A stretch of 64,000 bases of DNA from Kiritimatiellia bacterium (GTDB lineage Bacteria; Verrucomicrobiota; Kiritimatiellia; RFP12; UBA1067): positions 23,968-87,967 of the forward strand of contig JAFTCL010000029.1 of the NCBI GenBank assembly GCA_017454745.1. Reading direction: 5' to 3'. Position 1 is the stretch's first letter; the number at the start of each line of letters is the position of its first letter. The translations under genes and the position numbers were made by a program. Positions 1,691-47,225 of the stretch are shown in pieces. Below the pieces are notes generated by a model that was given only the letters and a program-made list of their open reading frames with translations, was not told the DNA's origin and searched no databases.

Positions 1691-1719
1691 TTGACTAACC
1701 TGGGGGCGGGTGATACAAT
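1691..1719 (+). promoter_or_regulatory. Sigma70-like promoter for the 1757..5827 gene.
   Basis: TTGACT (1691-1696), 17-nt spacer, TACAAT (1714-1719), read directly from the sequence about 40-80 nt upstream of the candidate starts. Confidence 0.45.
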
Positions 1720-1756: not shown

Positions 1757-4700
1757 GTGGGCCGGCTTTGGAAAGGACAGGGCACTGTGGACGATAATAT
1801 GGCCAAATCGGTTCTTAATGGATTTGATGTGTGTAACGCCACATTGGCGAAGCCGGGGGCGCGACACTATCGAACGTTGACGGCGGGATGTTGTCTGGCG
1901 CTTGGAATCATTGCTGTTGGAAACGCCGTGGCGGCACCGGAAAACGGCAGGTATATCCATGTGCGCCTTGAGCGTATCCCAGCGATATTGTCGATTGCGG
2001 AACTTGAGGCGTTCGCCGGCGGAGATAATGTGGCCAAGGGACGTCCCGCGTTCCAGAGTACGGTGGGTTACGGCGGCGTTCCGGCGCGGGCGGTGGACGG
2101 CAACACCAATCCCGACTGGGGCAGCGAGACCATAACGCACACCGACGAGGGGCGCAAGAACAGCCCGCAGTGGTGGGAGGTGGATCTTGGAAAAAACGTC
2201 GAGGTGTCCAAGATCGTGCTGCATAACCGAAAGGGGTACAGCCACCGTTCCGACGGCGTGCAGGTGTTGCTGCTTGACGAGCGCCGACGCGTGGTGCGCG
2301 GCAAGACGTTCGCCGACGCGGGACCGCTGGTTCTGGAGATGGATCTTGCGACGGAAGCGTGCGCGGAATGTGCCGGAGAGGAAATCGAAGACGTGACCGT
2401 GCCGCCAGCCACGCCGGCAGAGATACGCGCCGCATACGAAAAACGGGCCACATGGGTTGATTCCGTTGCGGCAACGGCGGCAAAGCTGCGCCGGTACCAG
2501 ACGCTGCTGCCGCTTATCGACCGGTTGGTGGAGGACTTCCCGGACCATGCGGAGGAGATAGTGGGGAATCTCGGTTCCGGGAATTTCTCGAAAGCCGAGC
2601 TGATGAAGGGCGCACCGAAGCTTGCGTCCACATCCGACGAGTCCAAATTGCTTGCGCTTGAGACGCTGAAGTGGTTCAACGCCGCCGCGATGGAACGCGC
2701 CATCCGCGCTTACTCCGCCAAATACCCTAGTGCATACGGTGATCCTGCCGCGTTGCTGGCAAGGCTTGCGGAGGTTAAGAAGTCTATTGAGGGTGCGGCG
2801 AACGAAGAGACGAGACTTAATGCTGCGGCGGCCCTTATGAAGTTACAGGACGATTTGTTCCTGCGCCATCCCGCCGTTGATTTCACGCATTTTTTGATGG
2901 TCAAGCGCAGTCGAAAATCACATTCAGGTCTGCCGCACAATTGGCAGGGCAACTCATCTGTGCCGTTGGAGGGGTATTTGAACGCCATTGTTTCATTGCC
3001 GATTCGCCGTGGCACGGGAGAGCGAGGGCGTACCATTGCCGCGTCGAATTATTTTCTTGGGGACGTCGATCTGGACTTCGATGCGGACAAGATCGCCTAT
3101 TCTGGCGGTCTCGACAGCGAAAAACGATGGTGCGTACTTGAAACGCGCCTTGATAAGCCTCTTGTCAAGACGCTCAAAACGCCTTCCGGTATGAACGACA
3201 TCGATTGTTACGACCCTTGCTATCTTCCCGACGGCCGCATGCTGTTCGTCTCCACCAGCGGCTTTCACGGCGTGCCGTGCGTTACCGGTTCCGACTATGT
3301 GGGCAACACGCATCTTCTTGAAAAGGATGGCGGGGTGAAACGCCTGGTGTTCGATCAGGACAACAGCTGGTGTCCCGTGGTGATGAACAACGGCCGTGTT
3401 CTCTATTTGAGATGGGAATACACCGACAGCGCACATTACTTCTCCCGCGTTATGATGACCATGAACGTGGACGGCTCCGACCAAAAGGCGTTCTACGGGT
3501 CGAACTCTTACTGGCCGAACTCGCTGTTTTACGCACGGCCGCTGCCGGGATCCGTCACGAAATTTTGCGGGATAGCTTCCGGCCACCACGGTTGTGCGCG
3601 CGAGGGAGAACTGGTACTCTTCGACGTGATGAAAGGGAGGAACGAAACGGAAGGTGTGATCCAGCGTATACCGGGATGGGGTAAGCCCGTTGCGAACAAG
3701 GCGCGCGACCAATTGGTGAACGGTTCGAGTCCGCGTTTCCTCCACCCGTATCCGCTGGCCGACGAGCTTTTCCTGACATCCGTCCACCGCGGCAACGGCG
3801 ACCCGTTCATCGTGGCCTTCGCGGACATTTATGACAACATCGTTCCCGTGTGCGTCTCTGCCGACTGGAACTGTCTGGAGCCGTTGCCGATAAAGAAACG
3901 CAGTCGTCCGCAGATGTCCGTGGACAGGCGCAACGACGCTGTTGACACCTGCACCGTCTATCTTCAGAATGTTAATTTCGGCGCGGGTCTGAAGGGCGTT
4001 CCGAACAATGTGGCCAAAAAACTCCGCCTGTTCTCCTACAGTTATTCGCCGCGCAACGTGGGCGGCCACTACAACATTGGTTTCGAGGGACCGTGGGACA
4101 TTCGCAACATCCTTGGCGAGGTGGAACTGGAAAAGGACGGCAGCGCGATCTTCACCGTCCCCGCCAATACGCCGTTCGCCATCCAACCGTTGGACTCAAA
4201 CGGATGCAAGCTTCAGGAGATGCGCTCGTGGTTTGTGGGCGTTCCCGGAGAGGTGATTTCCTGCACGGGATGCCACGAGAACCAGAACGAGGCACCGCCC
4301 GCGGCCAACTCCATCGCGGCGCGGAAGCGTCCGCAAACACCCGCGCCGTGGTACGGTCCGCGCCGCAACTATGCGTTTTTGCGCGAGGTGCAGCCGGTGC
4401 TCGACCGGAAATGCGTTGGATGCCACAACCCGAACAGCGGGCTAAAGACGCGGATGGGTGCGCCGTTGCCGGACTTCGACGGCAGCAAGATGGAGGGACA
4501 CTACTCCAGGGCCTATGTCAATTTGATGCCTTACGTGCGGAGGAACGGTCCCGAGGGCGACTACCATCTGCTTACGCCGCTGGAGTTTCACGTGTCAACG
4601 TCCGAACTGTACCAACGGCTTGAAAAGGGGCATCACAATGTGAAGCTCACCGCCGAAGAGTGGTCGAGAATCGTCACCTGGATGGATCTTAACGTTCCTT

Positions 4701-5827
4701 TCTGGGGCACTTGGACCGAGGAGACCGGCGGGAACCAGCGTACCCAGATGAATTTGGCCCGCAGAAAAGAGATGGCGTTGAAATGGGCCGGCGACAAGTA
4801 TGACCCCGAGAAGATCGGGAATCCATACGTTCCCGGCACGGAGCGTTTCGAGGCGCCGCCCGCAGGGGAGAAGTCGAATAAAGAGATTAAAGTCGAAGGC
4901 TGGCCGTTCGCCGCCACGCGGGCGAAAGAGATGCAGGGCGAAAATAAGCCTCGCACGTTAGACATCGGGAGCGGCGAGCAGTTGGAGTTCGCGTACATCC
5001 CCGCCGGCTCTTTCGCGATGGGTTCAAACGAACTTACGCCCGCCGAGCGCCCGGTGTGCAAAGCCACGATCGGCAAAGGATTCTGGATGGCGACGAAAGA
5101 GATCACACAGGGGCAGTTCCGTCTAATGGACCCGAATTTCGACAACGGAGTGTACGACAAACATTACAAAGACCAGGTGAATCGCGGTTACTACATGGGC
5201 GGTCGGGATCCGGATTTCGCCCAGCCCGGCAACGAGAAGTTCCCCGCCATCCGCGTGAGCTGGGACATGGCGCAGCAGTATTGCGCGTGGCTCTCGAAGC
5301 GGCTTGGCAGGAAGGTCCGCCTGCCCACCGAGGCCGAATGGGAGTGGGCCTGCCGCGCCGGAACGGACACCGAATTCAACTACGGTACAAAAGACGATGA
5401 CTTCTCCAAGCATGAGAACATGGCCGACTATATGTTTATCGAGCTGGCCGTGGTTGGGGTGAATCCGCAGCCGTTTGCCCGCGGCGATGATCCGCAGCCG
5501 AAAAATCTGCCGCCCGCGCTGTGGGATTACGAGTTGCGTGACCGCCGCTTCAACGACCATGTGCTTCATCTTGCGAAGGTTGGCAGCTACGCGCCCAACG
5601 TCTGGGGGCTTTACGATATGCACGGAAACGTAGCGGAGTGGACATCAAGCCCGTGGCGGTCTTACCCTTATGACGAGAAAACTGCTGACGGCGATCTTAA
5701 AGTAGTGCGCGGCGGATCGTGGTACCGGCGTCCGGTGGTTAGCTCAAGCGCCTGGCGTTGGCGCTATCCGTCATGGATGCGTCCGTTCGATGTTGGATTC
5801 CGCGTGGTCGTAGAGGATCTGCCATGA
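1757..5827 (+). CDS. Large secreted multi-domain protein: N-terminal F5/8 type C (discoidin) domain, central Planctomycete-cytochrome-like region with two CxxCH haem motifs, and a C-terminal formylglycine-generating-enzyme (SUMF1/FGE) family domain.
   Basis: 1356-aa ORF. Signal-peptide-like TAGCCLALGIIAVGNAVAA; an alternative start at MAKS (1799) is possible. Discoidin-like block AVDGNTNPDWGSE...WWEVDLGK. Motifs CTGCHENQ and CVGCHNPNSG. FGE hallmarks RVSWDMAQQYCAWL, LPTEAEWEWACRAG, NVWGLYDMHGNVAEWTSS and VVRGGSWY. Confidence 0.7.
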   Translation: MGRLWKGQGTVDDNMAKSVLNGFDVCNATLAKPGARHYRTLTAGCCLALGIIAVGNAVAAPENGRYIHVRLERIPAILSIAELEAFAGGDNVAKGRPAFQSTVGYGGVPARAVDGNTNPDWGSETITHTDEGRKNSPQWWEVDLGKNVEVSKIVLHNRKGYSHRSDGVQVLLLDERRRVVRGKTFADAGPLVLEMDLATEACAECAGEEIEDVTVPPATPAEIRAAYEKRATWVDSVAATAAKLRRYQTLLPLIDRLVEDFPDHAEEIVGNLGSGNFSKAELMKGAPKLASTSDESKLLALETLKWFNAAAMERAIRAYSAKYPSAYGDPAALLARLAEVKKSIEGAANEETRLNAAAALMKLQDDLFLRHPAVDFTHFLMVKRSRKSHSGLPHNWQGNSSVPLEGYLNAIVSLPIRRGTGERGRTIAASNYFLGDVDLDFDADKIAYSGGLDSEKRWCVLETRLDKPLVKTLKTPSGMNDIDCYDPCYLPDGRMLFVSTSGFHGVPCVTGSDYVGNTHLLEKDGGVKRLVFDQDNSWCPVVMNNGRVLYLRWEYTDSAHYFSRVMMTMNVDGSDQKAFYGSNSYWPNSLFYARPLPGSVTKFCGIASGHHGCAREGELVLFDVMKGRNETEGVIQRIPGWGKPVANKARDQLVNGSSPRFLHPYPLADELFLTSVHRGNGDPFIVAFADIYDNIVPVCVSADWNCLEPLPIKKRSRPQMSVDRRNDAVDTCTVYLQNVNFGAGLKGVPNNVAKKLRLFSYSYSPRNVGGHYNIGFEGPWDIRNILGEVELEKDGSAIFTVPANTPFAIQPLDSNGCKLQEMRSWFVGVPGEVISCTGCHENQNEAPPAANSIAARKRPQTPAPWYGPRRNYAFLREVQPVLDRKCVGCHNPNSGLKTRMGAPLPDFDGSKMEGHYSRAYVNLMPYVRRNGPEGDYHLLTPLEFHVSTSELYQRLEKGHHNVKLTAEEWSRIVTWMDLNVPFWGTWTEETGGNQRTQMNLARRKEMALKWAGDKYDPEKIGNPYVPGTERFEAPPAGEKSNKEIKVEGWPFAATRAKEMQGENKPRTLDIGSGEQLEFAYIPAGSFAMGSNELTPAERPVCKATIGKGFWMATKEITQGQFRLMDPNFDNGVYDKHYKDQVNRGYYMGGRDPDFAQPGNEKFPAIRVSWDMAQQYCAWLSKRLGRKVRLPTEAEWEWACRAGTDTEFNYGTKDDDFSKHENMADYMFIELAVVGVNPQPFARGDDPQPKNLPPALWDYELRDRRFNDHVLHLAKVGSYAPNVWGLYDMHGNVAEWTSSPWRSYPYDEKTADGDLKVVRGGSWYRRPVVSSSAWRWRYPSWMRPFDVGFRVVVEDLP

Positions 5828-8607
5828 GTGGAAGCTCCGCTATTAAAGGGGAGATGGGGCGGCTGGCGTGGGGCACAGACGCAGGGTTCTACCGTATCCT
5901 GCCAGAAGAGGTGCTGATGCCGGCTGACGAGGAGGACGTGCGGAGCATCTTGGGGCGTGCCCGCCGCGAGGGTAAGAGCGTCACGTTCCGGTCGGCGGGG
6001 ACTTCGCTTTCGGGGCAGGCGATTACCGACTCGCTGCTTGTCGTGTGCGGCAAGAAGTGGGAAAAATTTGAGGTGCTTGACAGCGGCGCGAGAATCCGTC
6101 TCCAGCCCGGCATTGTGGGCGGCAGAGTGAATGAGGTGTTGAAACCCTACGGGCGCAGATTCACGCCCGACCCCGCTTCGGTCAACAGCGCGATGGTGGG
6201 TGGCATCGTGATGAACAACGCCTCCGGCATGAGTTGCGGTACGCACGCGAACAGTTACCGCATGATCGATTCCGTGCGGATCGTTCTCGCGGACGGCACT
6301 ACGCTCGACACCGGAGATGCCGAGAGCCGCGCCGCGTTTACGGTTTCGCACCGCGACTTTATAAAGCGGATTCAGGAGTTGCGCGACGGTGTGCGCACCA
6401 ACGCCGCCCTTGCGGAGCGTATCCGCCGCAAGTATGCCATCAAGAACGTTACGGGGCTTACGATTCTCCCGTTCGTGGAGTTTGACGACCCGTTTGAGAT
6501 TATCGCGCATTTGATTCCGGGAAGCGAGGGAACGCTGGCGTTCCTTTCCGAGGTCACGTTCAGAACTGGCAAGATTGTGCCGCTTTCGGAGTCCGCGCTT
6601 CTGCTCTTTCCTTCCTCCCGCATGGCCTGCGAGGCCGTGGTGGCAATCAAGGCGACCGGGGTGGCGGTGGCGGCGGAGTTTTTCGACCGTCGTGCCATGA
6701 GGGCCGTGGAGAAGGACTTTCCGGAGCTTTCCGGTCTGCCGGACGAAGCCGGGGCGTTGCTTGTGAAAACGAAGGCTGAGGACGGGGTGCAACTCACCGC
6801 TCACCGTGCCGCGATACTTACCGCGCTTGGGCCGTTTACGCTCGCCGCGCCGGCCGCGTTCACGTCCGCCCCCGCCGAAGTCGCCAGATTTTGGGCGATG
6901 CGCAGCGGAATATTTCCCGCCGTCGGCGGCACCAGAGAAATCGGCACCACCTGTCTCATTGAAGACATTGCCGTGCCGATTGAGTGCCTTGCCGAGGCAA
7001 CGGAAGATCTGCAACGGCTTTTTGTGGCGCACAACTATCCCGATGCCGTCATCTATGGGCACGCTCTCGACGGCAACTGGCACTTCATTCTAAACCAGCG
7101 CTTCGACACGCAGGAGGCCGTGGCGCAATATGACTCGATGATGCGCGATGTTGTGTCGCTCGTCACCGAGAAATACTGCGGATCGCTCAAGGCCGAGCAT
7201 GGCACGGGACGTAACATGGCACCGTTTGTGCGTCGCGAATGGGGCGATGACGCTTATTTGCTCATGAAGGAAGTGAAGTCGCTTTTCGACCCGGAAGGGA
7301 TTCTGAACCCAGGCGTGATTTTTAACGAAGACGAATCGGCTTACGTGAGCAACTTGAAACCGTTGCCGCGTCTCGATCCGATTGTTGACAGATGTATTGA
7401 ATGCGGCTTCTGCGAGGTAAAGTGCGTTGCTCACGGGTACGCGCTTTCATCGCGCCAACGGATTGTGGTGCAACGCGAGATTGCGCGGCTTAACGCTTTG
7501 AACGACCCGGCGGAGTGGAGAAGGGCGAAGCGGCTTGTACGCGAATTCCGAAGCGCGGGGCGAGATCTTTGCGCAGGCGACGGACTTTGTTCCACGGCGT
7601 GCCCGGTGGGGATTAACACAGGTGAGCTGATTCATGTGATACGCGGGCGCGAGATGTCCTTGCTCGCGAAAAGAGCCGGGGGCTTTGCGGCGGATCACTT
7701 TGCTTTTGTGGCGGGACTCGCGGCAGCAATGTTGCGTTTGGCATCGTTTGGACGAAGCGTTTTGGGTACGCGGCTGATGGCGTCGGTTTGCAGGGCGTTG
7801 CACAAAGGGACGTTCGGGATGGTTCCGTTGTGGACTCCCGCGACACCCGGCGCGGCGAACGCCGTGAAAACGCGTAAATGCGCAATGGCGGCAGCGGGGC
7901 GTTCCGGGAAAGTGGTGTATTTCCCTTCGTGCATCAACCAACGCATGGGCGCGTTACCGGGAGAACGACCCGTTGTTGAGGAGACGGTTGAACTTCTGGG
8001 CAAGGCGGGGTACGAAGTGGTGTTTCCCGGGGGAATGGAGAAGCTGTGTTGCGGCATGATATGGGAGTCGAAGGGGATGCCGGACATTGCCGACCGCAAG
8101 ACGGCGGAACTTGAAACCGCCCTCCGCAGCGCATCGGAGAACGGCAGATGGCCGATTCTTTGCGACCAAAGCCCATGTCTGCACCGGATGCGCGAGAAGA
8201 TTAACGGGCTTAATCTCTACGAACCAGCCGGGTTTATTGATAAGTTTGTGTTGGACAAAGTGCGTATCAAGCCTTTGCCGAAGGACTGGTGCGTGGCGGT
8301 ACACATCACCTGTTCCACGCGGCGGATGGGACTTGCGGATACTATGGTGCGAGTTGCCCGCGCCTGTGCGAAAAACGTGTTTGTGCCGGAGGAGGTGGGG
8401 TGTTGCGCGTTCGCCGGTGACAAAGGTTTCACGCATCCGGAGTTGAACGCTTGGGCGCTGCGCAAGTTGCGTCAGCAGATTGAACACGCCGGGGCCGTAC
8501 ACGGTTACAGTAATTCGCGTACCTGCGAAATCGGCCTTGCGACCCATTCCGACATCCCGTACTCCAACATCGTCCATCTCGTAAACCGCGTAGCCACCGC
8601 AAAGTAA
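5825..8607 (+). CDS. FAD-binding and Fe-S-binding oxidoreductase (YdiJ/D-lactate dehydrogenase-like; FAD PCMH domain fused to a 4Fe-4S dicluster and CCG domains).
   Basis: N-terminal FAD-linked oxidase motifs (RSAGTSLSGQA, GGIVMNNASG). C-terminal CIECGFCEVKC and CAGDGLCSTACP ferredoxin-like cysteine clusters, plus CCG-type cysteines (LCCGM, CCAFAGD). The start at 5825 (MSGSSAIKGE) overlaps the upstream stop by ATGA; the ORF-track start at 5758 would overlap 70 nt. Confidence 0.75.
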
Positions 8608-12019: not shown

Positions 12020-12132
12020 TTCAACTTGTTTTGGTGGGGTTGGGCTTTTTTTTTTCGCGGGCTTTTTGCCGGGCTTGGCGTCGGCGCGGCCTTTGAACCA
12101 TGGTTTTATTACCGTCACACGGGGCAGATGTT

Positions 12133-14490
12133 ATGAGATTGCAGATTAAGCTTTGGGGTGTTTTGGCGTTTATGGCGGCGGCAGCCGTCGCGGACGGGGT
12201 GTCTTTCCGGAAAGCCCAACCGGTCTGGCCGGAGGGACGCGAGCGGGAGAAAAACCTTTTCGTGGGGTTTTACGCCAAGCTGACCGCGCCGGAACTGGAT
12301 CGGGCGGTGTTAAGGATTACCGGGTCGTCGGTTTACCGGATTTACCTCAACGGCGAGTTCTTGGGGTACGGTCCGGCGCGCGGGCCGCACGGCTGGGACC
12401 GGGTTGACGAATGGCCGTTAAAGCCTCTGGCCCGCGCCGGGGAGAACCATCTGGCGATCGAGGTGGCGGGATACAATGTAAACAGCTTCTACCTTATCGA
12501 CGAGCCGGCCTATTTGCAGGCCGAGGTGGTTCGCGGCGGGGAGGTGGTGGCTGCCACCTCCCCGGCAACGGCGGAATTTTCGGCGCGGCTGCTGCCCCGC
12601 GAGCAAAAGGTTCCCCGTTACAGTTTCCAGCGGCCGTTCGGCGAAGCGTACCATTTGGACGCGGATTCTAAACAGTGGCGGGTCGGGAAGTCCGCCGCCG
12701 CCCCGTTGAAACTGGCGGCGCAGCCGCAGCAAAAGCTGCTTGACCGAATCGCGCCCTATCCGGACTTCAAGAAAAACACCGGATGGAAAGCGCTCACCAC
12801 CGGCGACATCAAGGTCAATCCGGAAAAGCGACTGTGGGCCGATCGCGCCATCAAGAATATCGGTCCGAAACTGGGCGGTTTCCCGGAGCGCGAACTTACC
12901 TCCGTGCCGATCTACGAGGTGCAGAAGATGGAGAGCGCCAATTCCTCGCCTTGTTCCTCGCAGCGGCTGGAATTGTCCGACCGGCGTTATTATGTGGTGG
13001 ATTGGGGACTGAACGACACTGGGTTCATCGGCGGCAAGTTCCGTTGCACCAAGCCCGGAAAACTGTATGTGACTTTTGACGAGTTGCTGTCCGGCAATGA
13101 CGTCAGCCCGGTCCGCATGAGTTGCAGCAACGTCGTGGTTTGGGAATTGAAGACTCCTGGGGAATACGATCTGGAGTCGTTTGAACCCTACACCATGCGC
13201 TATTCGAAAATCATCTCCGACGGCGCGGCGGGGGAATTCGCCGACCTTTATCTGCGCACCTACAAAAATTCCGCTACCGGAAGGGCGACGTTCCACAGCA
13301 GCGATCCGGATTTGGACAAAATCTTCGAGGCCGCCCGCGAGACGTTCGTCCAAAACGCGGTGGACGTGTTTACCGACTGCCCGTCACGGGAGCGCGCCGG
13401 CTGGCTGTGTGACAGCTATTTCACCAGTCGCGCCAGCCAGGTGCTTTGCGGCAACACCGACATGGAGCGGCTGTTCCTGCAAAATTTCGTGCTTCCCGAC
13501 CAGTTCAAGTCCCTTCCCAAGGGCGTGTTTGCGATGTGCTATCCCAGCGACCATCCGGACGGCACGTTCATTCCCAACTGGGCGATGTGGTTGGTGGTGG
13601 AGCTGGACGAGTATGCCCGCCGCAGCGGCGACCGTGAACTGGTGGAGCAGTTCCGTCCGAAAGTGCTGGCGCTGATTGATTTCCTGAAGAAGTACCAAAA
13701 CAGCGACGGCTTGCTCGAAAAACTGCCGTCGTGGGTGTTTGTCGAATGGTCGCGGGCGAACTCGCTGGTGCAGGACGTGAACTATCCGTCGAACATGACC
13801 TTCGCGTGGGTGCTTTCCTGCGCGGCGCGGATGTACAACCTGCCGGAACTTGAGCGCGAAGCCGAGGCAATCCGCGCCACTATCCGCAAGCAATCTTGGG
13901 ACGGCACGTTCTTCATCGACAATGCGGTCCGCCAGCCGGACGGCAAATTGAAACTGAGCGGCGAGCGCACCGAAACCTGCCAGTATTATGCGTTCTTCTT
14001 CCGGACCGCCACGCCGGAGACCCATCCGGAACTGTGGGCGAAGTTGCGCGACGATTTCGGCCCGGCGCGGTCGAAGACCAAGAAGTTCCCGGAGATTCAT
14101 CCGTCGAACGCTTTTATCGGCAATTTCCTGCGGCTGGAGATTCTGTCCCGCGCCGGTTTGTCCGCGCAGATTCTGGACGAGACCAAGGGGTACTTCCTGT
14201 ATATGGCGGAACGCACCGGGACGTTGTGGGAGAATATCACCCCGAACGCCAGCTGCAACCACGGTTTCGCCAGCCATGTGGCGGTGATGCTTTTCCGCGA
14301 CGTGCTGGGAGTTCGCGAGCTTGACCCGCTGGCCAAGACGGTCAAGATAGAGGTGGCGAATCTGCCGCTGGAAAGTTGCGAGGGCACCGTGCCGGTTCTT
14401 GACGGCGAGGTTAAGGTGTCATGGCGGAAAGTGAACGGACGGCCCGAGTTGAATGTTTCAACCCCGCCCGGTTGGAAGGTTGTTAAGTGA
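12133..14490 (+). CDS. Alpha-L-rhamnosidase, glycoside hydrolase family 78.
   Basis: Signal peptide MRLQIKLWGVLAFMAAAAVADG. Diagnostic GH78 six-hairpin motif FTDCPSRERAGWLCDSY (DCPxRER.GW.GD). Confidence 0.8.
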   Translation: MRLQIKLWGVLAFMAAAAVADGVSFRKAQPVWPEGREREKNLFVGFYAKLTAPELDRAVLRITGSSVYRIYLNGEFLGYGPARGPHGWDRVDEWPLKPLARAGENHLAIEVAGYNVNSFYLIDEPAYLQAEVVRGGEVVAATSPATAEFSARLLPREQKVPRYSFQRPFGEAYHLDADSKQWRVGKSAAAPLKLAAQPQQKLLDRIAPYPDFKKNTGWKALTTGDIKVNPEKRLWADRAIKNIGPKLGGFPERELTSVPIYEVQKMESANSSPCSSQRLELSDRRYYVVDWGLNDTGFIGGKFRCTKPGKLYVTFDELLSGNDVSPVRMSCSNVVVWELKTPGEYDLESFEPYTMRYSKIISDGAAGEFADLYLRTYKNSATGRATFHSSDPDLDKIFEAARETFVQNAVDVFTDCPSRERAGWLCDSYFTSRASQVLCGNTDMERLFLQNFVLPDQFKSLPKGVFAMCYPSDHPDGTFIPNWAMWLVVELDEYARRSGDRELVEQFRPKVLALIDFLKKYQNSDGLLEKLPSWVFVEWSRANSLVQDVNYPSNMTFAWVLSCAARMYNLPELEREAEAIRATIRKQSWDGTFFIDNAVRQPDGKLKLSGERTETCQYYAFFFRTATPETHPELWAKLRDDFGPARSKTKKFPEIHPSNAFIGNFLRLEILSRAGLSAQILDETKGYFLYMAERTGTLWENITPNASCNHGFASHVAVMLFRDVLGVRELDPLAKTVKIEVANLPLESCEGTVPVLDGEVKVSWRKVNGRPELNVSTPPGWKVVK

Positions 14491-22975: not shown

Positions 22976-25900
22976 TTAGTCGCGGCGCAAGCGGTAGAAT
23001 CCGCTTGGTGCCATGTGCGGGATGACTAGAGTTTGCAACCCGGCGGGGAATTTCCCGCTTTCCAGTTCCCGCCATTCCGCGTCCGGCGATTCTGCGCTCT
23101 CCAGATGATAGAGAACGCCCGGCTGCGCCTCAAAAATTAGGTAGCCGTTGTCGCCGTCCGACCGGAAGCCGAGGATGGCGAGCGAAACGCTGTCCTCCGT
23201 GTCGGCGCTGAAAAAGGTCCAGTCCAGCCGGAGGCAGGGTTTCCCCGGATCGTTGGTCATAAATTCCAGCGTGACCGTTTCTGCGGGGGCTGAAAGGTTC
23301 GCCGGGTAACCGGTGAAACCAAAGGTTTGCGTTTCTCCGGGATTCAACCCGATCCCGTTGCCGCCGGAGTCTTGCCGTACTAGGCCGTTGTCGGGCATGG
23401 GGGCAAGACGGACGTTGTCGATGTACCAGCCTTCCGGATCGGAGTTGTTGTCTCCGCCCATCACAAAACGGAACACCACGCTCTTGCCGGCGAAACCGTT
23501 TTCTTCCGGGTAAAGTTCGGACAAGTCAAACGTCGCGGTCCGCCAGCCTTCCGTGCCGTCGCCGGAGAAACACGGGGTGCCGTCCTCCCATGGCGACGCC
23601 ATGCGGGTGCCGGAATACCACCAGCCGTAAATGGTGTGGGTGTAAGGTCCGCGCAGCTGCTTAAATGTTTCTCCGCCGTCGAGCGAATATTCAACAATCC
23701 CGCCGTCAAAGGTTCGGCTTGGGTCTTCGCTGTCGGGTTCGCCTTGAATCCAGTAATCGAACGAAAGCACCGTTCCGGGTTCCAGTTTTTCCGCATGGTG
23801 GGTGATGGAACCGTGGACACCCGCGCCGTATAAGAAATAGCGCGCGCTGTTGAGCTGGCAGTGCAGCGCGTAGGGGGCCGAGACAAAACGGTTGGTGCTG
23901 ATTTGCCACGTTTGTTTGGGTTCGTAGGAGTTCCAATCCCATTCGGCGTGGCGATCGGCGGTGATGGGGTCGAACCGCACCAGAGCCACCGTGCCGGTCA
24001 ACGCGACGTTACCGTCATTGCTGATAACGCGCTGGAACGGGATTGGCAGAGTGTCGGCGGCGGACAGGGTGGCGCGGCAGCTGAATTCATCGGCGTTCAA
24101 CAGCGGATAAACCAACCGGGTTTCGTATTCGTCCGACACCGCGCACAGACCAGAGGGGTTTTGGGCGGTGATGTAGTAACGAAGTGTCGCGCCCGGACCG
24201 AAGCCTTCGCCGAAAACGGCGGTGAAGGTGCGGCGCAAGGCGGCACTGGCGGACATCGGGGTTTCGCGCCACTCGTCTTCGTCCTTGTTACGCCAGTGCA
24301 GGGTTGGCGATACTACCGCGTGGGGATCGGTGATAAGGGCGGTTAAGGTAAGCGGGGGCGGAACGCCGCACTCGGCATCGAGCGGGCTGACGGTTATCGT
24401 CGGCGGTCCGGGAATCGCGGCGGCATCGGTCGGGTCGCAGCGGAACCCGTACTCCGTTGCCAGCGAAAAACCGTCGCCGTCAAAATCGGCTTCGGGGTCA
24501 TTCCCGGTCGACCCCAAATACCGTAACTCGTACCAGTCGGGAATCCCGTTCCCGTCCGCGTCCAGTTCTTCCGGCATATATTCCGCCACCAGACAGTGAG
24601 GAGAGTCGGCCGGGAGCGGGCCGGGGGCGGGATTGCAACCGCCGGGAGCGGCGGGAAAACGCTGTCCGTCAAGCCGCCATTCGTAAAAGCGGTAACAAGC
24701 GGAGTTGGTGGCGACGGGGTCGGGAATCTCTTCCGGAGTAAAGAGTCCCCCCGCCTCGCTCCATTGGGTCCAATCATCGAACAACGCGTCGTGGGTGCTG
24801 ACCGTCAACCGGTATTCGGTGTCCGACTGCCATTGGACGGAGGAATGGGTATCGAGCCGGAAGGTGAATTCGGCTTCGCTGCCGGATGGGGCGGAACCGA
24901 TTCCGAAATGGTTGGTGTAGGTATGTCGGGTGTCGTCGGCGGTGTAAACCACACCCGCGCTGCGCACGGAGAACACGGTGCCGGACGGTGCTTCGTGGGA
25001 ACCGTAATCCGGCACCGGCGAGCCAAGTTCGTACGGCGATCCGGTGACCGTCAGCGTCATCCGTTCGCCCGACCAGAAAACGCATTCGCCTTCGGACGGG
25101 AATGCGGCGGCGAGTCCAGAGATGGTGGCGGCGGTGATGCGGTAGCGGATTTCGGTATGCGCGGGCTGGGCGGGGATGGCGGCTTCGAATAACGCGCTGC
25201 CGGGATGATTGGTCATGGCCAAACTATGCACGCCATCGCCTGCGTCCCACTCCAGCCGTACCGTGTCGGGAGCGTACAGTCCGCACGGGCCGAGGGTGCA
25301 AACCACAGGATATTCCGCCACATCGTCAAACTGGTTGGGTAGCGGGGTGTGGCTGATAACGGTCGGGGTGAGGTTGATCGCCGGGAAAAGCGGGGTGGCG
25401 GGGTCGCCGAACAGCGTGAGTTCGAGATACACCCACCGCCAGTAGTTGAAAACGTTGCAGTTGCCGAGGATTTTCCGGCGGGAACATTCGTTAGCCTCGC
25501 CGATGGTGGCGGCTTCGCCATCGAATATTTTTTCCCAGAACACGCGTTGTGTGTAGGGCGACGGTCCGCCGAGCGAGTTGCTGAAAAACCAGCCGTTGCG
25601 GGTATTCATCACGGCGGCAAAGGCGGCGTTGGTGGCGGACACCAGTTGTTCGGCGTAGCAATGCGGGTTGTCGAACGCGCCGGAATTGCAGGCGATGGAA
25701 TAGACCAAGAACGGCAGGGAGTTGGTCAGCGTTTGGAAGGGATTGTTTGCGCCGTTGCTTTGCACGGAGATTTTCATCGCGCTGTACAGCGAGCCGTGAC
25801 CGAAGTTGTTGACCGCCGCCGGGCTTTGGTTGAGCAAGTTTTGGGTATCCTCCGCCGTGAATAAACCGTTGGTGCCGTCGTACAGCGTGACCGTGTCGAA

Positions 25901-27142
25901 TATGTCGCGGTAGCGGCCGCCGATGAACCCGCTGGTAGTGTAGCTCTGTTCCGATCCGCCCAGCCGCAGCAATTCCATAAACCCGTCGGAATAGGTGAAG
26001 CTGCCGGCGTCGATCTTTTCTCCGATGAACGCCGCGCCACGTAGTGCCTCCGCGGCGGCGGACTCGTAGGCAAGCGTCTTGCGCACCATCAGCGCGAATC
26101 CGTCGGCATCCGCCACCGGGAACCGTCCTACGAACAATTCCGACAACAGGTCAATGTCGCCGCCGTCTGGGCCGTCGTTAAGTTCGCCGTACACGCCGTT
26201 GCCGTTACCGTCCATAGAGCCGTCGAGACATCCGTAGTAAATCTGGTCGGATGGGATCTGGGCGGAACTGGTGGTGGTCATGACGGTGAAAGACAAAGGG
26301 AATTTTGGCGTCGGAATCCAATCGTGGTTGCCGACCAGCAGCAGGTAACGCGGCTGCCAGTGGTCGCGGGCGTCTTTGAGGAAATTCCTGATTTTGGTCG
26401 GCTGACCGATGCCGTTATAGTTGCCGGAAATCCATTCGGTGGTGACGGTTTTGGCGCGGTGGCCTTGGCGTTCGCGGGCGGCGATTAAGGTTTGCAACGG
26501 TACGGCGGCGGATTCCGATTCCAAAATCGCGCTTGGCCCGATCAACAGATAGTCGAATGTGTCCGTCTCCAGCGGTGACGCGGCGGCATCCAGTTTAACC
26601 GCGTGGTGCGGGCGGCTTTGCAGGGTAAGGGTTACCTTCCACGTTTCCGATCCGGTTATGCAGCGTTGAAGCGGCAGGTAACGGACCGGGTGCAATCGCA
26701 CCGTGGCCAGATTGCGTTCGCCGTCGCGGTCGGTTCGGAATGTCGCAATTGGGGTAGGGGGCCATGGTCGGTCGGACGTTTCGATTTCCGGACGCATTTC
26801 GACGGCGGCCGGCGCGGAATCGCCGGGGCGCACTGCGGGTTGGCCGCAGACGGGCGGCGCGGACAACGCCGCCACGTATGGCGCAAGCGGTTCTGCCGTG
26901 GCGGCAACCGCCACCGTGCCGGAGGGGATTTCGATCTGCACGCTGGCGGCGGGAAGCAATGGTTCGCCGGGCGCGGCGTCATTTGGGCAACAGGGTAAAT
27001 CGATTGCCGTATTGCCGTTGGCGGTTACGGTTAAGCGCGGGCGCGGGAAAGATACGGTTTTACTGACGCAAAAAGTTGCCTCGGCGGCATTGAGTGTTAC
27101 CGCCGAGGTCAGTAAAAATATGCAAACGCGCCACGGCATCAC
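22976..27142 (-). CDS. Secreted peptidase C25 (gingipain-like, clan CD) family protein with a long C-terminal extension.
   Basis: Signal peptide MMPWRVCIFLLTSAVTLNA. His and Cys catalytic contexts NFGHGSLYS and YSIACNSGAF matching the C25 dyad environment. 1388 aa. Confidence 0.6.
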   Translation of the reverse strand: MMPWRVCIFLLTSAVTLNAAEATFCVSKTVSFPRPRLTVTANGNTAIDLPCCPNDAAPGEPLLPAASVQIEIPSGTVAVAATAEPLAPYVAALSAPPVCGQPAVRPGDSAPAAVEMRPEIETSDRPWPPTPIATFRTDRDGERNLATVRLHPVRYLPLQRCITGSETWKVTLTLQSRPHHAVKLDAAASPLETDTFDYLLIGPSAILESESAAVPLQTLIAARERQGHRAKTVTTEWISGNYNGIGQPTKIRNFLKDARDHWQPRYLLLVGNHDWIPTPKFPLSFTVMTTTSSAQIPSDQIYYGCLDGSMDGNGNGVYGELNDGPDGGDIDLLSELFVGRFPVADADGFALMVRKTLAYESAAAEALRGAAFIGEKIDAGSFTYSDGFMELLRLGGSEQSYTTSGFIGGRYRDIFDTVTLYDGTNGLFTAEDTQNLLNQSPAAVNNFGHGSLYSAMKISVQSNGANNPFQTLTNSLPFLVYSIACNSGAFDNPHCYAEQLVSATNAAFAAVMNTRNGWFFSNSLGGPSPYTQRVFWEKIFDGEAATIGEANECSRRKILGNCNVFNYWRWVYLELTLFGDPATPLFPAINLTPTVISHTPLPNQFDDVAEYPVVCTLGPCGLYAPDTVRLEWDAGDGVHSLAMTNHPGSALFEAAIPAQPAHTEIRYRITAATISGLAAAFPSEGECVFWSGERMTLTVTGSPYELGSPVPDYGSHEAPSGTVFSVRSAGVVYTADDTRHTYTNHFGIGSAPSGSEAEFTFRLDTHSSVQWQSDTEYRLTVSTHDALFDDWTQWSEAGGLFTPEEIPDPVATNSACYRFYEWRLDGQRFPAAPGGCNPAPGPLPADSPHCLVAEYMPEELDADGNGIPDWYELRYLGSTGNDPEADFDGDGFSLATEYGFRCDPTDAAAIPGPPTITVSPLDAECGVPPPLTLTALITDPHAVVSPTLHWRNKDEDEWRETPMSASAALRRTFTAVFGEGFGPGATLRYYITAQNPSGLCAVSDEYETRLVYPLLNADEFSCRATLSAADTLPIPFQRVISNDGNVALTGTVALVRFDPITADRHAEWDWNSYEPKQTWQISTNRFVSAPYALHCQLNSARYFLYGAGVHGSITHHAEKLEPGTVLSFDYWIQGEPDSEDPSRTFDGGIVEYSLDGGETFKQLRGPYTHTIYGWWYSGTRMASPWEDGTPCFSGDGTEGWRTATFDLSELYPEENGFAGKSVVFRFVMGGDNNSDPEGWYIDNVRLAPMPDNGLVRQDSGGNGIGLNPGETQTFGFTGYPANLSAPAETVTLEFMTNDPGKPCLRLDWTFFSADTEDSVSLAILGFRSDGDNGYLIFEAQPGVLYHLESAESPDAEWRELESGKFPAGLQTLVIPHMAPSGFYRLRRD

Positions 27143-27144
27143 CG

Positions 27145-30100
27145 TTACCTGATGAGGAACTTCGTCCCGGAGTCAAAGTAGATGCCGTCGTCACGCACCA
27201 TTAGGAAGTATCCGCGGCGGCGCATGGCGGCCGAATTTACGAAATTGACCCCCTCCGGTTTTTCCGCCCACTTGTAAAGGCAGGAAGTGGTAAATTCGGT
27301 ACGGTCACCAATATCCACCGTCACGGTAGCGCCTTCGAAGAAGGTGATCGTTTGGCCTTCACTTTCATCGAAGGTTTCGGTGAATTGCGACAGATCCAAC
27401 ATCGGTTCGAGGTGGTTCTCGTCGCCCAGTTGCACCAAAGGACGCAGGTTGAATCCATCTTCGCTTTCGGATTCCAACGGCGGGGTATAGCTGTCGAACA
27501 CCACAATCGGCGAGGGCGATGCGTTAAGTTCACGGAACTTTGATCCGGGGTGGAATGTCAGCGATTTGACCGGCGACAGGATTCCGGTGTTTTGCCAGTA
27601 ACGACCGTAAACCTCCACAACGCAATTGCTCGCCGACGGTTTGGAGATGTGGGTCTGGAACCAGCCGTTCGTAGCAATGACGATTTTCCCTTCGCCGTAG
27701 TAAGACATGTTGCCGGCGAAGATGCGGGCATCGCCATTGCCATCGTATGTAACAGTGTTTCCGCCCATCGTCATGGTGTTTGCGCTGTAGTTGTAGAAAA
27801 ACATACCCATGTTGCCGCCGGCATACACCGTGGCATTCGTGGCGAGTGTCACGTTGCGCAGGAACGACGTACCGGTGTTTTGCGCATACGCCGTGGCCAC
27901 GTTGATTTCCGCGGTACTGATAAGTGCGCCCGTATCGTCCGGACCCGTGCCCGAAATGGTGTAGTCGTAGTCGTGGTACGTGCGTCCGTTGAGGTCGAAC
28001 TGCGCACCTTCCTCCACCACGATGCGCGAATACGCCTCACCGCATGTCGCGCCGGACGCTTTCTTAACCAAGCCGTCCTCCACCACCATTGAGGTGATGC
28101 CGTTTCCGCCAAAAGTGTTCACCTTCGACATCGTAAGCACGCCCTTGCCTGTTTTGTGTATCCGGAGACCCATGCCGTCAAAGAAATAGTTTTGGGTGCT
28201 ACCTAGTACAATGTTGGAAATGTCGCAATCTTCACCTTCGGGAACGTCAATCGTCAAATGGCTTTCCGGGCTGACTGTAGCTTCGTCAACCAAAATCCAG
28301 GCATAGTATCGGCCAAAAATGAAAGAGTGGGTTCCGGCATTTAGTGTTTTTTGGTAGATCGGCGACGAATTACCCTGTGGGTAAGGTTTTACATCAAGAT
28401 GTTTTACAACGCTATTGGCTGAGTCGATTCCACAATCCACCCCATATTCCGCATAATTGGAATCGTACTTCGCATACCTGAATCTGATGTAGCAGACACC
28501 AGTGCGTGCGACCGTGAACAGGGTGGTTGCGCCGGCGGTGTCATTCGGAGATCCGATTACGCACCAGTGGTTCCCGGCAAATGGCTTGTCCTTGCATGTG
28601 TTTGCCGTCACGCCATTTCCGTTGGCCGTGACCGTCTCGTTGCCGGAACCGAATGCCCATCCTGTACTGCCATTCTCAAAACCGCCGTTTGCAATGAGAT
28701 TACCTGCGGTGATGCGTCCGGTTCCCTGCGGTTTGTGGATCTTGAGGTTCCAACCCATAAGGTATATTGTTTTGCCGTTCATGTCGAAGTCGATTGCTCG
28801 CCAGTCCGCGTCGCCAGAAAGCGTTATGTCGTTTTGCAGCAAGACAATCGCATTGGCGGCGGCGATTTCATCGGTGTGTTGTGCGAGAGCCTGAAACTCG
28901 GCGTTATCCGCGAAGAGCACCTTCATGTAGTCCATTCCAAGTGTCCACTCGCCTACGTATGGGTTCAATTCTTCGTCGTAGAACTTCCATCCGTCGCTTG
29001 CGATGTCATATTTGACGAACGAAGGCACCTTGCCGGGAAGCACGTAAAGGCCTTCGGGTTTTGCCCACAGACCAAGCCGATCCTTGTTGGCACCGTCAAT
29101 GACAAACGTTGCAGTGGACATTTCCGGCCAAGCCACCAACAGGGTACTGCCCGCAAATTCGCGTGTTCCAAGATTGACCGTAATGGTGGATCCGGCATAA
29201 AACGTCGTATTCGAACCGTCGAAGACATCGCTTAATTGCGAGAGGTCGAACTCCGCCTCAAGGTGAGTGGCATCGCAGAGCTGGACCGGTTGGGTGGTCA
29301 GGGTGCAGGTGCCGTTAGCCTCGCATAGGACAGCGGGTTTATATTTTCCGGTAATAACCGTCGTGGGTATGCTGCCGGAACCGGCGGTGTCGGACAAAAC
29401 GAGTTGCGCCCCCTCCTCGAACATCAGCGACTTAATGGTGGAAAAGCCGCCATTGTCCATGGTAAGACGTCCAAAAATCGTCACATCGCTGTCGGGGGCG
29501 GACGAATTGTGGCCGTAGAACGAAAAGTCCGTGCCTTTGGGTATTACGACGTTGCCTGCGCCACTGTAGGTGACGTTGCCGGCATAAACCGTCGGGGCGG
29601 AGTATGTCAACGTATGGCTGTTCAACGTCGTCGTGGTTGCGGCCCAGTTTCCGTTCTTTAGGTTGAGCGGTTGGGAACCTCCGATTACGGCGTTCGTGGC
29701 AAACGTGATGTTCCGCACGGCGAACGCCGCATTAGCCACATCAGGCACTTCCGTGTTGTTCACGATCGCGCCGAGTCCGTCTGGACCCGAACCGGCGATG
29801 TTGAAATCGTAGCTCGCGCTGCTGTCCGTCCCGCCGACATCGAACTGCGCGCCATCATTCACGACAATGCGCGAATTCTGTCCGCCGGCAGTCATGCCGG
29901 GGGCTTTCATTACAAGACCCTCTTCAACCACAAGGGATATCGCGCCGTCCGCCTGGGTAGCCATCGTCCACGCCTTGTTCAGGAGAAGCGTACCTTTGCC
30001 AGTCTTGTGGATTTCCAAGCCAAGACCGTAGTCGCCTTCGTAAGTCGATGTGGACGCACCGCCGAAACTCAAACTTGAAGTATCGACCTCCTCGCCCTCT

Positions 30101-30885
30101 GGAACGTCGAACGTCAAATGGCTCTCGGGGCTAATCGTCACAAAGCCGATCATCGAATAGCCGTTGTTGCGCCTGACCATGGCCTGAATTTGCGTCCCCC
30201 CCGTTACGGCTTTTGTCCACGGCCCCCGCCATACTTCACTCGCGTACGGCCCGGTATATGTGTAGTTCATGTAAACCGTCCCGCCGACAGAAAAGTAAAT
30301 GTACTGTTCATAGGTACTGCTGCCGTACTTCTTCGTCTTGCAGGCGATGTAGATATTGCGCGACTTTGGCGGCGTGAAGTCCCACCAGAGAGCGTTACTT
30401 TTGCTCGAGGTTCCAACATTCCACCAGCCGCCTCCCGCGCTCCATGTCGCGCTGCCGTTGCCGGATGGGGTAAGCGGATTGATCAGGTTGCCCGCCGAGA
30501 AACGTCCGTTCACCGGCTTGTGGACTTTCAGGTCGTAACCCTGTAACGTGACCGCCTTGCCGTTCATATTAAAGTCAATTGCGCTCCAGTCGGTATCTGC
30601 CGTGAGCGTGATGTCGTTCTGCAACGCAACCGTTACGTCGTCGAAAGCGCCCGGATTATCCTCGGCGTATTGGACAAGCGACTGAAATTCTAAATCGCTC
30701 GCGAAAAGCACCGTACAGCCCCCAAGCCCGGTTTCCGGGGCTTCGACGGCGTTTTCGCATGAAATGTCATCGTAGTAAACGAAGTTTTGCCCGACCAATT
30801 TCGCGAAAAACGTGTCGGCCGCCGCATTAAACGAAACTATAGCCGCTGCCGTTGCGGCGGTAAATAATCCTGCTGTTCTGCGCAT
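27145..30885 (-). CDS. Large secreted beta-helix surface protein with autotransporter-associated (PATR-like) repeats. It is internally duplicated.
   Basis: 1246 aa with a signal peptide. Two homologous halves (FQSLVQYAEDNPGAFDDVTVALQNDITLTADTDWSAIDFNMNGKAVTL versus FQALAQHTDEIAAANAIVLLQNDITLSGDADWRAIDFDMNGKTIYL). KTGKGTLLL-type repeats. Ends 2 nt upstream of the C25 gene. Confidence 0.65.
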   Translation of the reverse strand: MRRTAGLFTAATAAAIVSFNAAADTFFAKLVGQNFVYYDDISCENAVEAPETGLGGCTVLFASDLEFQSLVQYAEDNPGAFDDVTVALQNDITLTADTDWSAIDFNMNGKAVTLQGYDLKVHKPVNGRFSAGNLINPLTPSGNGSATWSAGGGWWNVGTSSKSNALWWDFTPPKSRNIYIACKTKKYGSSTYEQYIYFSVGGTVYMNYTYTGPYASEVWRGPWTKAVTGGTQIQAMVRRNNGYSMIGFVTISPESHLTFDVPEGEEVDTSSLSFGGASTSTYEGDYGLGLEIHKTGKGTLLLNKAWTMATQADGAISLVVEEGLVMKAPGMTAGGQNSRIVVNDGAQFDVGGTDSSASYDFNIAGSGPDGLGAIVNNTEVPDVANAAFAVRNITFATNAVIGGSQPLNLKNGNWAATTTTLNSHTLTYSAPTVYAGNVTYSGAGNVVIPKGTDFSFYGHNSSAPDSDVTIFGRLTMDNGGFSTIKSLMFEEGAQLVLSDTAGSGSIPTTVITGKYKPAVLCEANGTCTLTTQPVQLCDATHLEAEFDLSQLSDVFDGSNTTFYAGSTITVNLGTREFAGSTLLVAWPEMSTATFVIDGANKDRLGLWAKPEGLYVLPGKVPSFVKYDIASDGWKFYDEELNPYVGEWTLGMDYMKVLFADNAEFQALAQHTDEIAAANAIVLLQNDITLSGDADWRAIDFDMNGKTIYLMGWNLKIHKPQGTGRITAGNLIANGGFENGSTGWAFGSGNETVTANGNGVTANTCKDKPFAGNHWCVIGSPNDTAGATTLFTVARTGVCYIRFRYAKYDSNYAEYGVDCGIDSANSVVKHLDVKPYPQGNSSPIYQKTLNAGTHSFIFGRYYAWILVDEATVSPESHLTIDVPEGEDCDISNIVLGSTQNYFFDGMGLRIHKTGKGVLTMSKVNTFGGNGITSMVVEDGLVKKASGATCGEAYSRIVVEEGAQFDLNGRTYHDYDYTISGTGPDDTGALISTAEINVATAYAQNTGTSFLRNVTLATNATVYAGGNMGMFFYNYSANTMTMGGNTVTYDGNGDARIFAGNMSYYGEGKIVIATNGWFQTHISKPSASNCVVEVYGRYWQNTGILSPVKSLTFHPGSKFRELNASPSPIVVFDSYTPPLESESEDGFNLRPLVQLGDENHLEPMLDLSQFTETFDESEGQTITFFEGATVTVDIGDRTEFTTSCLYKWAEKPEGVNFVNSAAMRRRGYFLMVRDDGIYFDSGTKFLIR

Positions 30886-46193: not shown

Positions 46194-46230
46194 TGTGTTT
46201 GTAAACTTCACACACCAGAAAGGATTGATC

Positions 46231-47217: not shown

Positions 47218-47225
47218 GGTGCATT

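Follow-up and report, generated by a model that had tools for sequence, protein, structure and literature searches.

A hydrazine synthase alpha-like haem module fused to a predicted F-type lectin and a cysteine-less FGE-fold domain in a Kiritimatiellia bacterium

The window analysed here, a stretch of 64,000 nucleotides from a Kiritimatiellia bacterium (contig JAFTCL010000029.1), carries near its beginning an open reading frame (ORF) for a large protein whose central part is a homologue of the alpha subunit of hydrazine synthase (HZS), preceded by a lectin and followed by a domain with the fold of the formylglycine-generating enzyme (FGE). On the best reading, this protein is not a formylglycine-generating enzyme, and it is not a hydrazine synthase either. 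It is a member of a large and unstudied family in which an HZS-alpha-like cytochrome is combined with a cysteine-less FGE-fold domain and a carbohydrate-binding module (CBM). As to its role, the scales stand about level for a glycan-tethered extracytoplasmic haem oxidoreductase that in relatives forms part of an HZS-like system of alpha and beta-gamma proteins. A preliminary description of this DNA, made from its letters, had reported an ORF with two CxxCH motifs and three domains; coordinates and motifs are confirmed, and residue numbers are counted in what follows from the ATG at 1799 (1342 aa).

Residues 380-1045 of the protein are a complete HZS-alpha homologue, with a propeller, a middle haem domain and a C-terminal haem domain. 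Its parts are distributed in the gene as follows:

2969..3973, + strand: beta-propeller of the HZS-alpha-like module, residues about 391-725 (strand pattern in the model; alignment with 5C2V_A)
3413..3517, + strand: most conserved stretch of the protein (RWEYTDSAHYFSR...GSNSYWPNS), residues 539-573, a run of invariant columns inside the propeller
4013..4279, + strand: HZS_alpha middle domain (PF18582), ending in the haem-1 motif CTGCH
4262-4276, + strand: haem-1 motif CTGCH, residues 822-826, aligned with CSGCH (haem alpha-I) of 5C2V_A
4361..4798, + strand: C-terminal helical cytochrome domain, helical in the model, with the haem-2 motif CVGCH and His945 (nucleotides 4631-4633)
4412-4426, + strand: haem-2 motif CVGCH, residues 872-876, aligned with the haem alpha-II motif of 5C2V_A

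The middle domain is recognised by PF18582 at residues 739-827 (E 6e-27, 94.5 bits against a cut-off of 26.6). When residues 380-1045 were modelled with AF2 from an alignment of 35 sequences (pLDDT 78), the top Foldseek match of the model was chain A of PDB entry 5C2V, HzsA of Kuenenia stuttgartiensis (E 9.5e-24, TM 0.60/0.53, 750 aligned columns); the next matches were generic TolB- and LRP-type propellers at E about 1e-5, approximately 18 orders of magnitude behind. At the sequence level, phmmer pairs CTGCH with the CSGCH of haem alpha-I and FLREVQPVLDRKCVGCH with FRRDIQPILDAKCAMCH of haem alpha-II in the same chain (E 7e-11 for the latter pairing). The three-part module and both haem positions are shared with HzsA, whereas identity to it is about 16%, the NCBIfam equivalog for HzsA (NF052339) gives 44.9 bits against a cut-off of 800, and the lectin, the helical domain and the FGE-like domain found here are absent from HzsA. 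Unlike HzsA, this copy has no beta or gamma genes beside it, and the hosts of the family are non-anammox glycan degraders. The haem region had been described as PSCyt-like; that assignment (PSCyt1, PSCyt2 or PSCyt3) was rejected in favour of the full HZS-alpha homologue, no PSCyt family appearing in the Pfam listing of the protein, which comprised every family with E <= 1. Only the short helix-plus-CxxCH context of haem 2 (VQPVLDRKCVGCH) may resemble PSCyt1.

The two haem motifs are conserved in the family. Two CxxCH motifs did not arise by chance in any of 20,000 shuffled versions of the protein, and among frames of at least 100 aa in the window only that of the haem protein bears the motif. 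Relatives were collected by a word-indexed search that gave 668 of them among 8,000 scored candidates, the best 120 being studied more closely; exactly two CxxCH motifs are present in 119 of these 120. Neither motif varies among 35 homologues of 43-82% identity, and their C, C and H are invariant in all 39 representatives of separate 50%-identity clusters. Loss of conservation among orthologues, the weak point foreseen in the preliminary description, was found in no alignment that was made. The same 39 representatives retain His945, within a KGHH motif, which makes this residue a candidate sixth ligand of haem 2.

The surroundings of haem 1 separate this protein from the anammox enzyme. In HzsA, alpha-Tyr591, four residues after the motif histidine (His+4), is the iron ligand of haem alpha-I, while the histidine of CxxCH is diverted to zinc (PMC12758564, PMC12607021). 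Here this Tyr591-type proximal ligand is replaced by Asn830, the motif reading CTGCH-E-N-Q-N. At His+4 the 39 diverse relatives most often have N, S or D, Tyr not being one of these three commonest residues, and in close homologues E827, Q829 and N830 are at least 90% conserved, none of them being Tyr. A run of invariant polar and aromatic residues is also found in the propeller, with the motifs RWEY, HYF, GHHG, GGHY and EGPWD. The most conserved stretch, residues 539-573, is at the same time the worst-modelled part of the propeller, and its ordering may require a cofactor, a haem or a partner.

The C-terminal part of the protein is occupied by one further domain:

4994..5809, + strand: FGE-fold domain (PF03781) without the catalytic cysteine pair, with the conserved insert GVYDxHYKDQVxRGY at residues 1117-1131

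The preliminary description had assigned this domain to the SUMF1/FGE type, and the fold is borne out by the match to PF03781 (FGE-sulfatase) at residues 1066-1337 (E 1.4e-44, 153 bits, profile positions 7-254 of 255). FGE binds Cu(I) through two catalytic cysteines located after GGS(W/Y/F), which are C336 and C341 in the human enzyme. With FGE (SUMF1) the domain shares the fold, the Pfam family and the motifs LPTEAEWE(W/Y)ACRAG and GNVxEW, but the catalytic cysteine pair is absent: the sequence at the GGS(W/Y) position is GGSWYRRPVVSSSAWRWRYP..., and no cysteine follows C1185 in the protein, whose tail is GGSWYRRPVVSSSAWRWRYPSWMRPFDVGFRVV. A check of these residues across the 120 homologues gave no cysteine after GGS[WFY] in 111, one in 9 and two in none, so that the pair is missing from every one of them, and the alignments to FGE structures stop at GGSW, just before the catalytic loop. 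The earlier inference that a copper- and oxygen-dependent FGE is redox-coupled to the haems fails with the absence of this pair. The structures nearest by sequence are PvdO and PorK/GldK, followed by FGE. PvdO (5HHA) and PorK/GldK (9MZU, 9OTS) give the best matches of the domain (E 1e-17 to 1e-28); PvdO and PorK likewise have no cysteine pair after the GGS/GND motif within the aligned stretch, and both are extracytoplasmic. The corresponding NCBIfam equivalogs are not reached (PvdO 86.9 against 500; GldK 80.9 against 350), there is no pyoverdine or type IX secretion system (T9SS) context here, the neighbouring genes being unrelated, and the family-specific insert GVYDxHYKDQVxRGY together with the dihaem fusion sets the domain apart from PvdO and PorK/GldK. 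The cysteine-less domain would then be a putative binding module. The window encodes a second, small protein with an FGE-sulfatase domain (48260-49045, 261 aa), which is exported and has a single cysteine after GGSF and no cysteine pair; its gene follows three ORFs without Pfam matches (45117-48173), the G+C content of the stretch being 0.49-0.51 against about 0.58.

The N-terminal third of the protein bears on its location and on what it may bind:

1799..1933, + strand: probable Sec signal peptide, residues 1-45 (hydropathy profile; hydrophobic core at about 25-42, then AVA/AP)
1946..2368, + strand: F-type lectin (fucolectin) domain of the F5/8-C superfamily (Pfam, phmmer, Foldseek; His114/Arg144/Arg150 triad)
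2414..2860, + strand: all-helical domain, residues about 206-354 (helices predicted confidently, pLDDT about 80-96)

The hydropathy profile has a hydrophobic stretch at about residues 25-45 that ends in AVA/AP, a hydrophobic N-terminus is present in 102 of the 120 homologues, and the mature protein of homologues begins at a conserved GRY(V/I)xV motif. The protein, formerly described as secreted, is probably exported on the basis of these N-termini, and it is predicted to carry two c-type haems. The Pfam survey of its architecture gave three significant domains, F5/8-C, HZS_alpha middle and FGE-sulfatase, of which the first (F5_F8_type_C / NedA-like, residues 88-160) lies above the gathering score. 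The discoidin domain of the preliminary description indeed has the fold of that superfamily, and it can be placed more precisely as an F-type fucolectin. Its best PDB sequence matches are the lectin domain of lectinolysin and pneumococcal fucose-binding modules (E 5e-17 to 1e-14), and phmmer, matching the domain to 3LE0 of lectinolysin at E 5e-17, places H114, R144 and R150 opposite the H, R, R triad that binds fucose. An AF2 model of residues 46-400 (pLDDT 86) matches fucose- or Lewis-antigen-bound modules in Foldseek with TMt 0.67-0.74 and 31-37% identity. The likeness to bacterial F-type lectins (3LE0/3LEI; Streptococcus pneumoniae 2J1R-2J1V) extends in this way to fold, identity and triad, with the differences that 5 residues stand between the two arginines here, against 7 in the aligned lectinolysin lectin sequence, and that the lectin is joined here to a haem protein and not to a toxin or a glycoside hydrolase. 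Each triad residue is kept in 23-25 of the 35 homologues, position by position. Such a lectin may target the protein to a fucose-containing glycan. The helical domain that follows has no Pfam match and no significant fold match in the PDB, and it is restricted to the Kiritimatiellia-type subfamily.

The combination of domains had been considered unusual, and it turned out to be common. The best 120 relatives come from Kiritimatiellae, Phycisphaerae, other Planctomycetota and Verrucomicrobiota; most have all three Pfam domains, and in a minority no F5/8-C domain can be recognised. A full HMMER scan with the HZS-alpha-like module alone gave, among representatives of 50%-identity clusters, 4,746 matches at E <= 1e-3, of which 1,153 reach E <= 1e-30. 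The closest clusters, from Kiritimatiellia, Planctomycetota, Verrucomicrobiota and Bacteroidales, are mostly FGE-fused and have interchangeable N-terminal glycan-binding modules. HZS_alpha is present in 39 of the 39 diverse representatives and FGE-sulfatase in 34, their N-terminal modules being F5/8-C (6), NPCBM (3), Laminin_G_3 (2) and a SASA esterase (1), all glycan-binding or glycan-active. A search for the architecture in species-representative genomes, which the preliminary description had proposed for the PVC (Planctomycetota-Verrucomicrobiota-Chlamydiota) group, found the HZS-alpha-like plus FGE-like core to be widespread: it occurs in 30 loci, some genomes having two copies, from Kiritimatiellia, Limisphaerales, Opitutaceae, several planctomycete families and Phycisphaerae, with further loci in metagenome-assembled genomes labelled Tannerellaceae/Bacteroidales, Nitrospiraceae and Armatimonadia. 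In five loci (L013, L014, L015, L019 and L030) a second HZS-alpha-like paralogue lies within 10 kb of the first (25-46% identity); it is FGE-fused in L013 and FGE-less in L019.

Where the sources name the best 120 relatives, the names are FGE-family labels: JGI calls relatives 'formylglycine-generating enzyme required for sulfatase activity' and NCBI gives a generic FGE-superfamily name. The database label of sulfatase-maturing enzymes is probably wrong. Distant homologues of HZS-alpha and HZS-beta-gamma outside anammox bacteria, co-localised in four clades (I-IV), have been described by Hagglund et al. 2025 (PMC12758564), who report that these homologues, from Planctomycetota and other phyla, are without key residues and have no known function. 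The supplementary hit table of that work includes one 1110-aa 'SUMF1/EgtB/PvdO family' protein from Opitutales, and its main text makes no mention of FGE, sulfatase or N-terminal glycan-binding modules; clades I-IV cover few described taxa, as against the thousands of clusters of the family considered here. No paper was found in the literature on an HZS_alpha-FGE fusion, or on an F-type lectin fused with sulfatase-related domains.

The genomic context of relatives points to a possible partner. A Pfam census of 96 proteins flanking 28 loci gave no family common to more than 3, and a conserved operon or partner is not supported by it; the beta-gamma-like partner emerged only in a targeted search. 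Bacteroidales loci encode a protein of ~590 aa, composed of a propeller and a dihaem part of the CCP/MauG (cytochrome c peroxidase/MauG) type, whose best PDB sequence matches are HZS-beta (E 8.6e-21) and HZS-gamma (E 2.7e-18). With tblastn, a fused beta-gamma homologue of about 560-630 aa was found on the same strand as the alpha-like-FGE gene, at 0-5.5 kb from it, in 7 of 31 loci, which span Verrucomicrobiota (Opitutaceae, Kiritimatiellia), Planctomycetota and Bacteroidales:

L021:2189-4072 (Planctomycetales): beta-gamma-like gene immediately upstream of the alpha-like-FGE gene
L027:4-1677 (Opitutaceae): beta-gamma-like gene immediately upstream of the alpha-like-FGE gene
L029:6808-8376 (Kiritimatiellia): beta-gamma-like gene immediately downstream of the alpha-like-FGE gene
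L020:9881-11194 (Phycisphaerae): beta-gamma-like gene, with one thioredoxin-like gene between
L023:1005-2780 (Tannerellaceae/Bacteroidales): beta-gamma-like gene 1.8 kb upstream, followed by an FkbO/RidA-like gene
L033:2246-4012 (Tannerellaceae/Bacteroidales): beta-gamma-like gene 5.5 kb upstream, followed by an FkbO/RidA-like gene
L019:17925-19814 (Planctomycetes): beta-gamma-like gene adjoining the second, FGE-less alpha-like paralogue

Carbohydrate genes recur near relatives, with L-fucose isomerase, alpha-L-fucosidase, GH28 and GH43 at L002, and a fucosidase, aldolases and a sugar transporter at L033. The thioredoxin/AhpC-TSA-like gene that lies between the two genes at L020 (L020:8926-9636) may encode an apocytochrome reductase of the ResA/CcmG type.

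These data suggest the following mode of action. The protein, of ~1,300 aa, would sit outside the cytoplasm, the site of c-type haem attachment, where its lectin would tether it to a fucose-containing glycan, either a substrate or the cell's own envelope. The link to glycans is drawn because the N-terminal modules of the family are all glycan-binding or glycan-active and the neighbouring genes are often carbohydrate-related. Once tethered, the protein may act as a haem oxidoreductase. Haem 2, probably bis-His coordinated by His876 and the invariant His945, would serve as an electron relay, and haem 1 would be the reactive site, lying at the interface of propeller and middle domain and having ordinary His826 ligation instead of ligation by tyrosine as in HZS, since Asn830 stands in place of that tyrosine at His+4. 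The cysteine-less FGE-like domain would make no formylglycine; like its counterparts in PvdO or PorK, it would bind a substrate or a partner. For a sizeable minority of relatives, joint action with the fused beta-gamma homologue is probable and would give an HZS-like four-haem system.

Several observations weigh against a glycan-tethered oxidoreductase of this kind. Haem attachment, glycan binding and catalysis are predictions from sequence, and the placement of haem 1 at the interface is taken solely from homology to 5C2V. Within the most conserved stretch, the pLDDT of the AF2 model drops below 50 (model residues 160-176 and 188-194). The lectin might merely anchor the protein and give no indication of its substrate, and no gene neighbour is conserved across the family, so that the context gives no substrate either. 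As for the partner, the 10 kb upstream (L001) and the 58 kb downstream of this gene contain neither a beta-gamma-like gene nor another cytochrome, a beta-gamma-like gene is found in 0 of 8 loci of the lectin-bearing Kiritimatiellia subfamily, this one included, and that of L019 is directly beside the FGE-less alpha-like paralogue.

Other roles can be weighed against the same evidence. That the protein is a true formylglycine-generating enzyme, a sulfatase maturase whose haems supply or accept electrons for a copper/O2-type reaction, would agree with the strong Pfam FGE-sulfatase match, with the source annotations of relatives and with the abundance of sulfatases in the carrier lineages (PMC6388578), but it is scarcely credible and was rejected on account of the missing pair of Cu(I)-binding cysteines, absent here and in 120 of 120 homologues, with FGE alignments that end before the loop. 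Moreover, PvdO and PorK, which are without FGE activity, are closer than FGE, the N-terminal modules bind glycans and not sulfatase polypeptides, and the host belongs to Kiritimatiellia, whose cultured members are strict anaerobes with many PF03781 genes (PMC6388578). Nitrogen chemistry of the hydrazine synthase kind, that is, condensation or redox conversion of NO, hydroxylamine or ammonium at haem 1, is suggested by the full-length fold and motif homology to HZS-alpha and by the beta-gamma-like partners of some relatives. It is nevertheless very unlikely: the position of Tyr591 is Asn and the conserved residues after the motif include no Tyr, the hydrazine_alpha equivalog is missed by the wide margin given above, beta or gamma genes are lacking near this copy, non-anammox homologues are without key residues (PMC12758564), and such chemistry has no place for glycan-binding N-terminal modules and an FGE-like domain.

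A mainly non-catalytic protein has an appreciable chance, though it is unlikely. It would be a glycan-anchored electron-transfer or scaffold protein in which the FGE-like domain is structural and the haems conduct to an enzyme or an external acceptor. The nearest FGE-fold domains include that of PorK, a structural protein of the PorK/GldK ring, haem 2 looks like a bis-His relay haem and no substrate site can be identified. Against this, the invariant residues of the propeller exceed the usual needs of a scaffold, the homologous position in HZS-alpha is the active site, modules of the CBM type usually accompany enzymes, and a T9SS context is missing. Modification of a protein or peptide is distinctly unlikely. 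The FGE-like domain would in that case hold a polypeptide while the haems oxidise a side chain, together with the MauG-like beta-gamma partner where there is one. FGE, EgtB/OvoA and PvdO act on amino-acid or peptide substrates, MauG oxidises a protein substrate, and the partner found in relatives belongs to the CCP/MauG/RoxA superfamily; yet no gene nearby is a candidate for the substrate, no neighbour is conserved, glycans are what the N-terminal modules suggest as a target, and the cysteine-less FGE-like domain has no known catalytic residues.

If the protein is, as preferred here, a glycan-targeted haem oxidoreductase, anaerobic bacteria that degrade polysaccharides would have an auxiliary redox activity of a new type. 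Hydrazine synthase was long thought to be without relatives. Its alpha module is common outside anammox bacteria (~4,700 clusters at 50% identity), usually fused to FGE-like and glycan-binding modules, which increases the number of possible ancestors and of experimentally tractable relatives. A wider claim, unlikely when taken as a whole, is that FGE-fused HZS-alpha-like proteins and their beta-gamma-like partners form a widespread non-anammox four-haem HZS machine, recruited by lectin or CBM modules to complex (fucosylated, sulfated) glycans. Were it true, anaerobic PVC bacteria and Bacteroidales would possess redox enzymes of a new class, which depend on haem but not on oxygen and whose targets are glycans or glycoconjugates; the same proteins would be the ancestral pool for the recruitment of hydrazine synthase. 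The family also touches on sulfatase maturation. FGE needs oxygen. The strictly anaerobic Kiritimatiellales carry 11-20 PF03781 genes, a situation that was called paradoxical (Van Vliet et al. 2019, PMC6388578). The cysteine-less proteins of this family offer a partial explanation of the paradox, and they should not be counted as sulfatase maturases because the catalytic cysteines are missing.

The gene and its immediate surroundings present the following features:

1691..1719, + strand: sigma-70-like promoter match, TTGACT, 17-nt spacer, TACAAT, with TG extension (10/12 consensus matches)
1757..5827, + strand: whole ORF, 1356 aa from GTG 1757, with alternative starts at GTG 1787 and ATG 1799
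5824..8607, + strand: downstream gene for a 927-aa protein with FAD-linked oxidase, 4Fe-4S and CCG domains, a GlcD/GlcF-like fusion

The frame 1757..5827 is the longest at the site, and its product is identical to protein P0001 called on a 175-kb ENA metagenome scaffold. The start codon is ambiguous: GTG 1757 is preceded by GGAG, the NCBI protein MBQ9431025.1 of the same 90% cluster has 1346 aa, which fits GTG 1787, and ATG 1799 is the third candidate. The upstream gene, whose product is a BPL_N/GATase-like protein, ends at 1458, and the promoter match is located in the gap that follows it, of 298 bp to GTG 1757 or 340 bp to ATG 1799. A near-consensus promoter of its own had been attributed to the gene; the consensus match is present, but such sites are no more frequent in the region than in shuffled sequence (3 observed against 2.4 +/- 1.6), and it is not statistically distinctive. 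The ATG of the downstream gene overlaps the stop codon of the haem-protein gene (ATGA). This pairing is absent from all other loci examined, and a functional link to the FAD-oxidase/Fe-S gene was rejected, the adjacency being confined to the window among those loci; it is probably incidental, because the pairing is missing even beside a homologue at 80% identity. No Rfam match above the gathering score was found in the window.

Elsewhere in the window, glycoside hydrolase genes are found at 12100-14490 (rhamnosidase of the six-hairpin type), 39128-42703 (GH106 alpha-L-rhamnosidase) and 57582-60314 (GH2), from which it follows that the organism is a degrader of complex glycans. The stretches 22976-30885 and 51719-57406 (- strand) hold very large genes, for a 1388-aa Peptidase_C25 (gingipain-like) protein, an adjacent protein of 1246 aa without a Pfam match and a protein of 1895 aa likewise without one, and the G+C content of the window dips to 0.52-0.54 at 28-32 kb.

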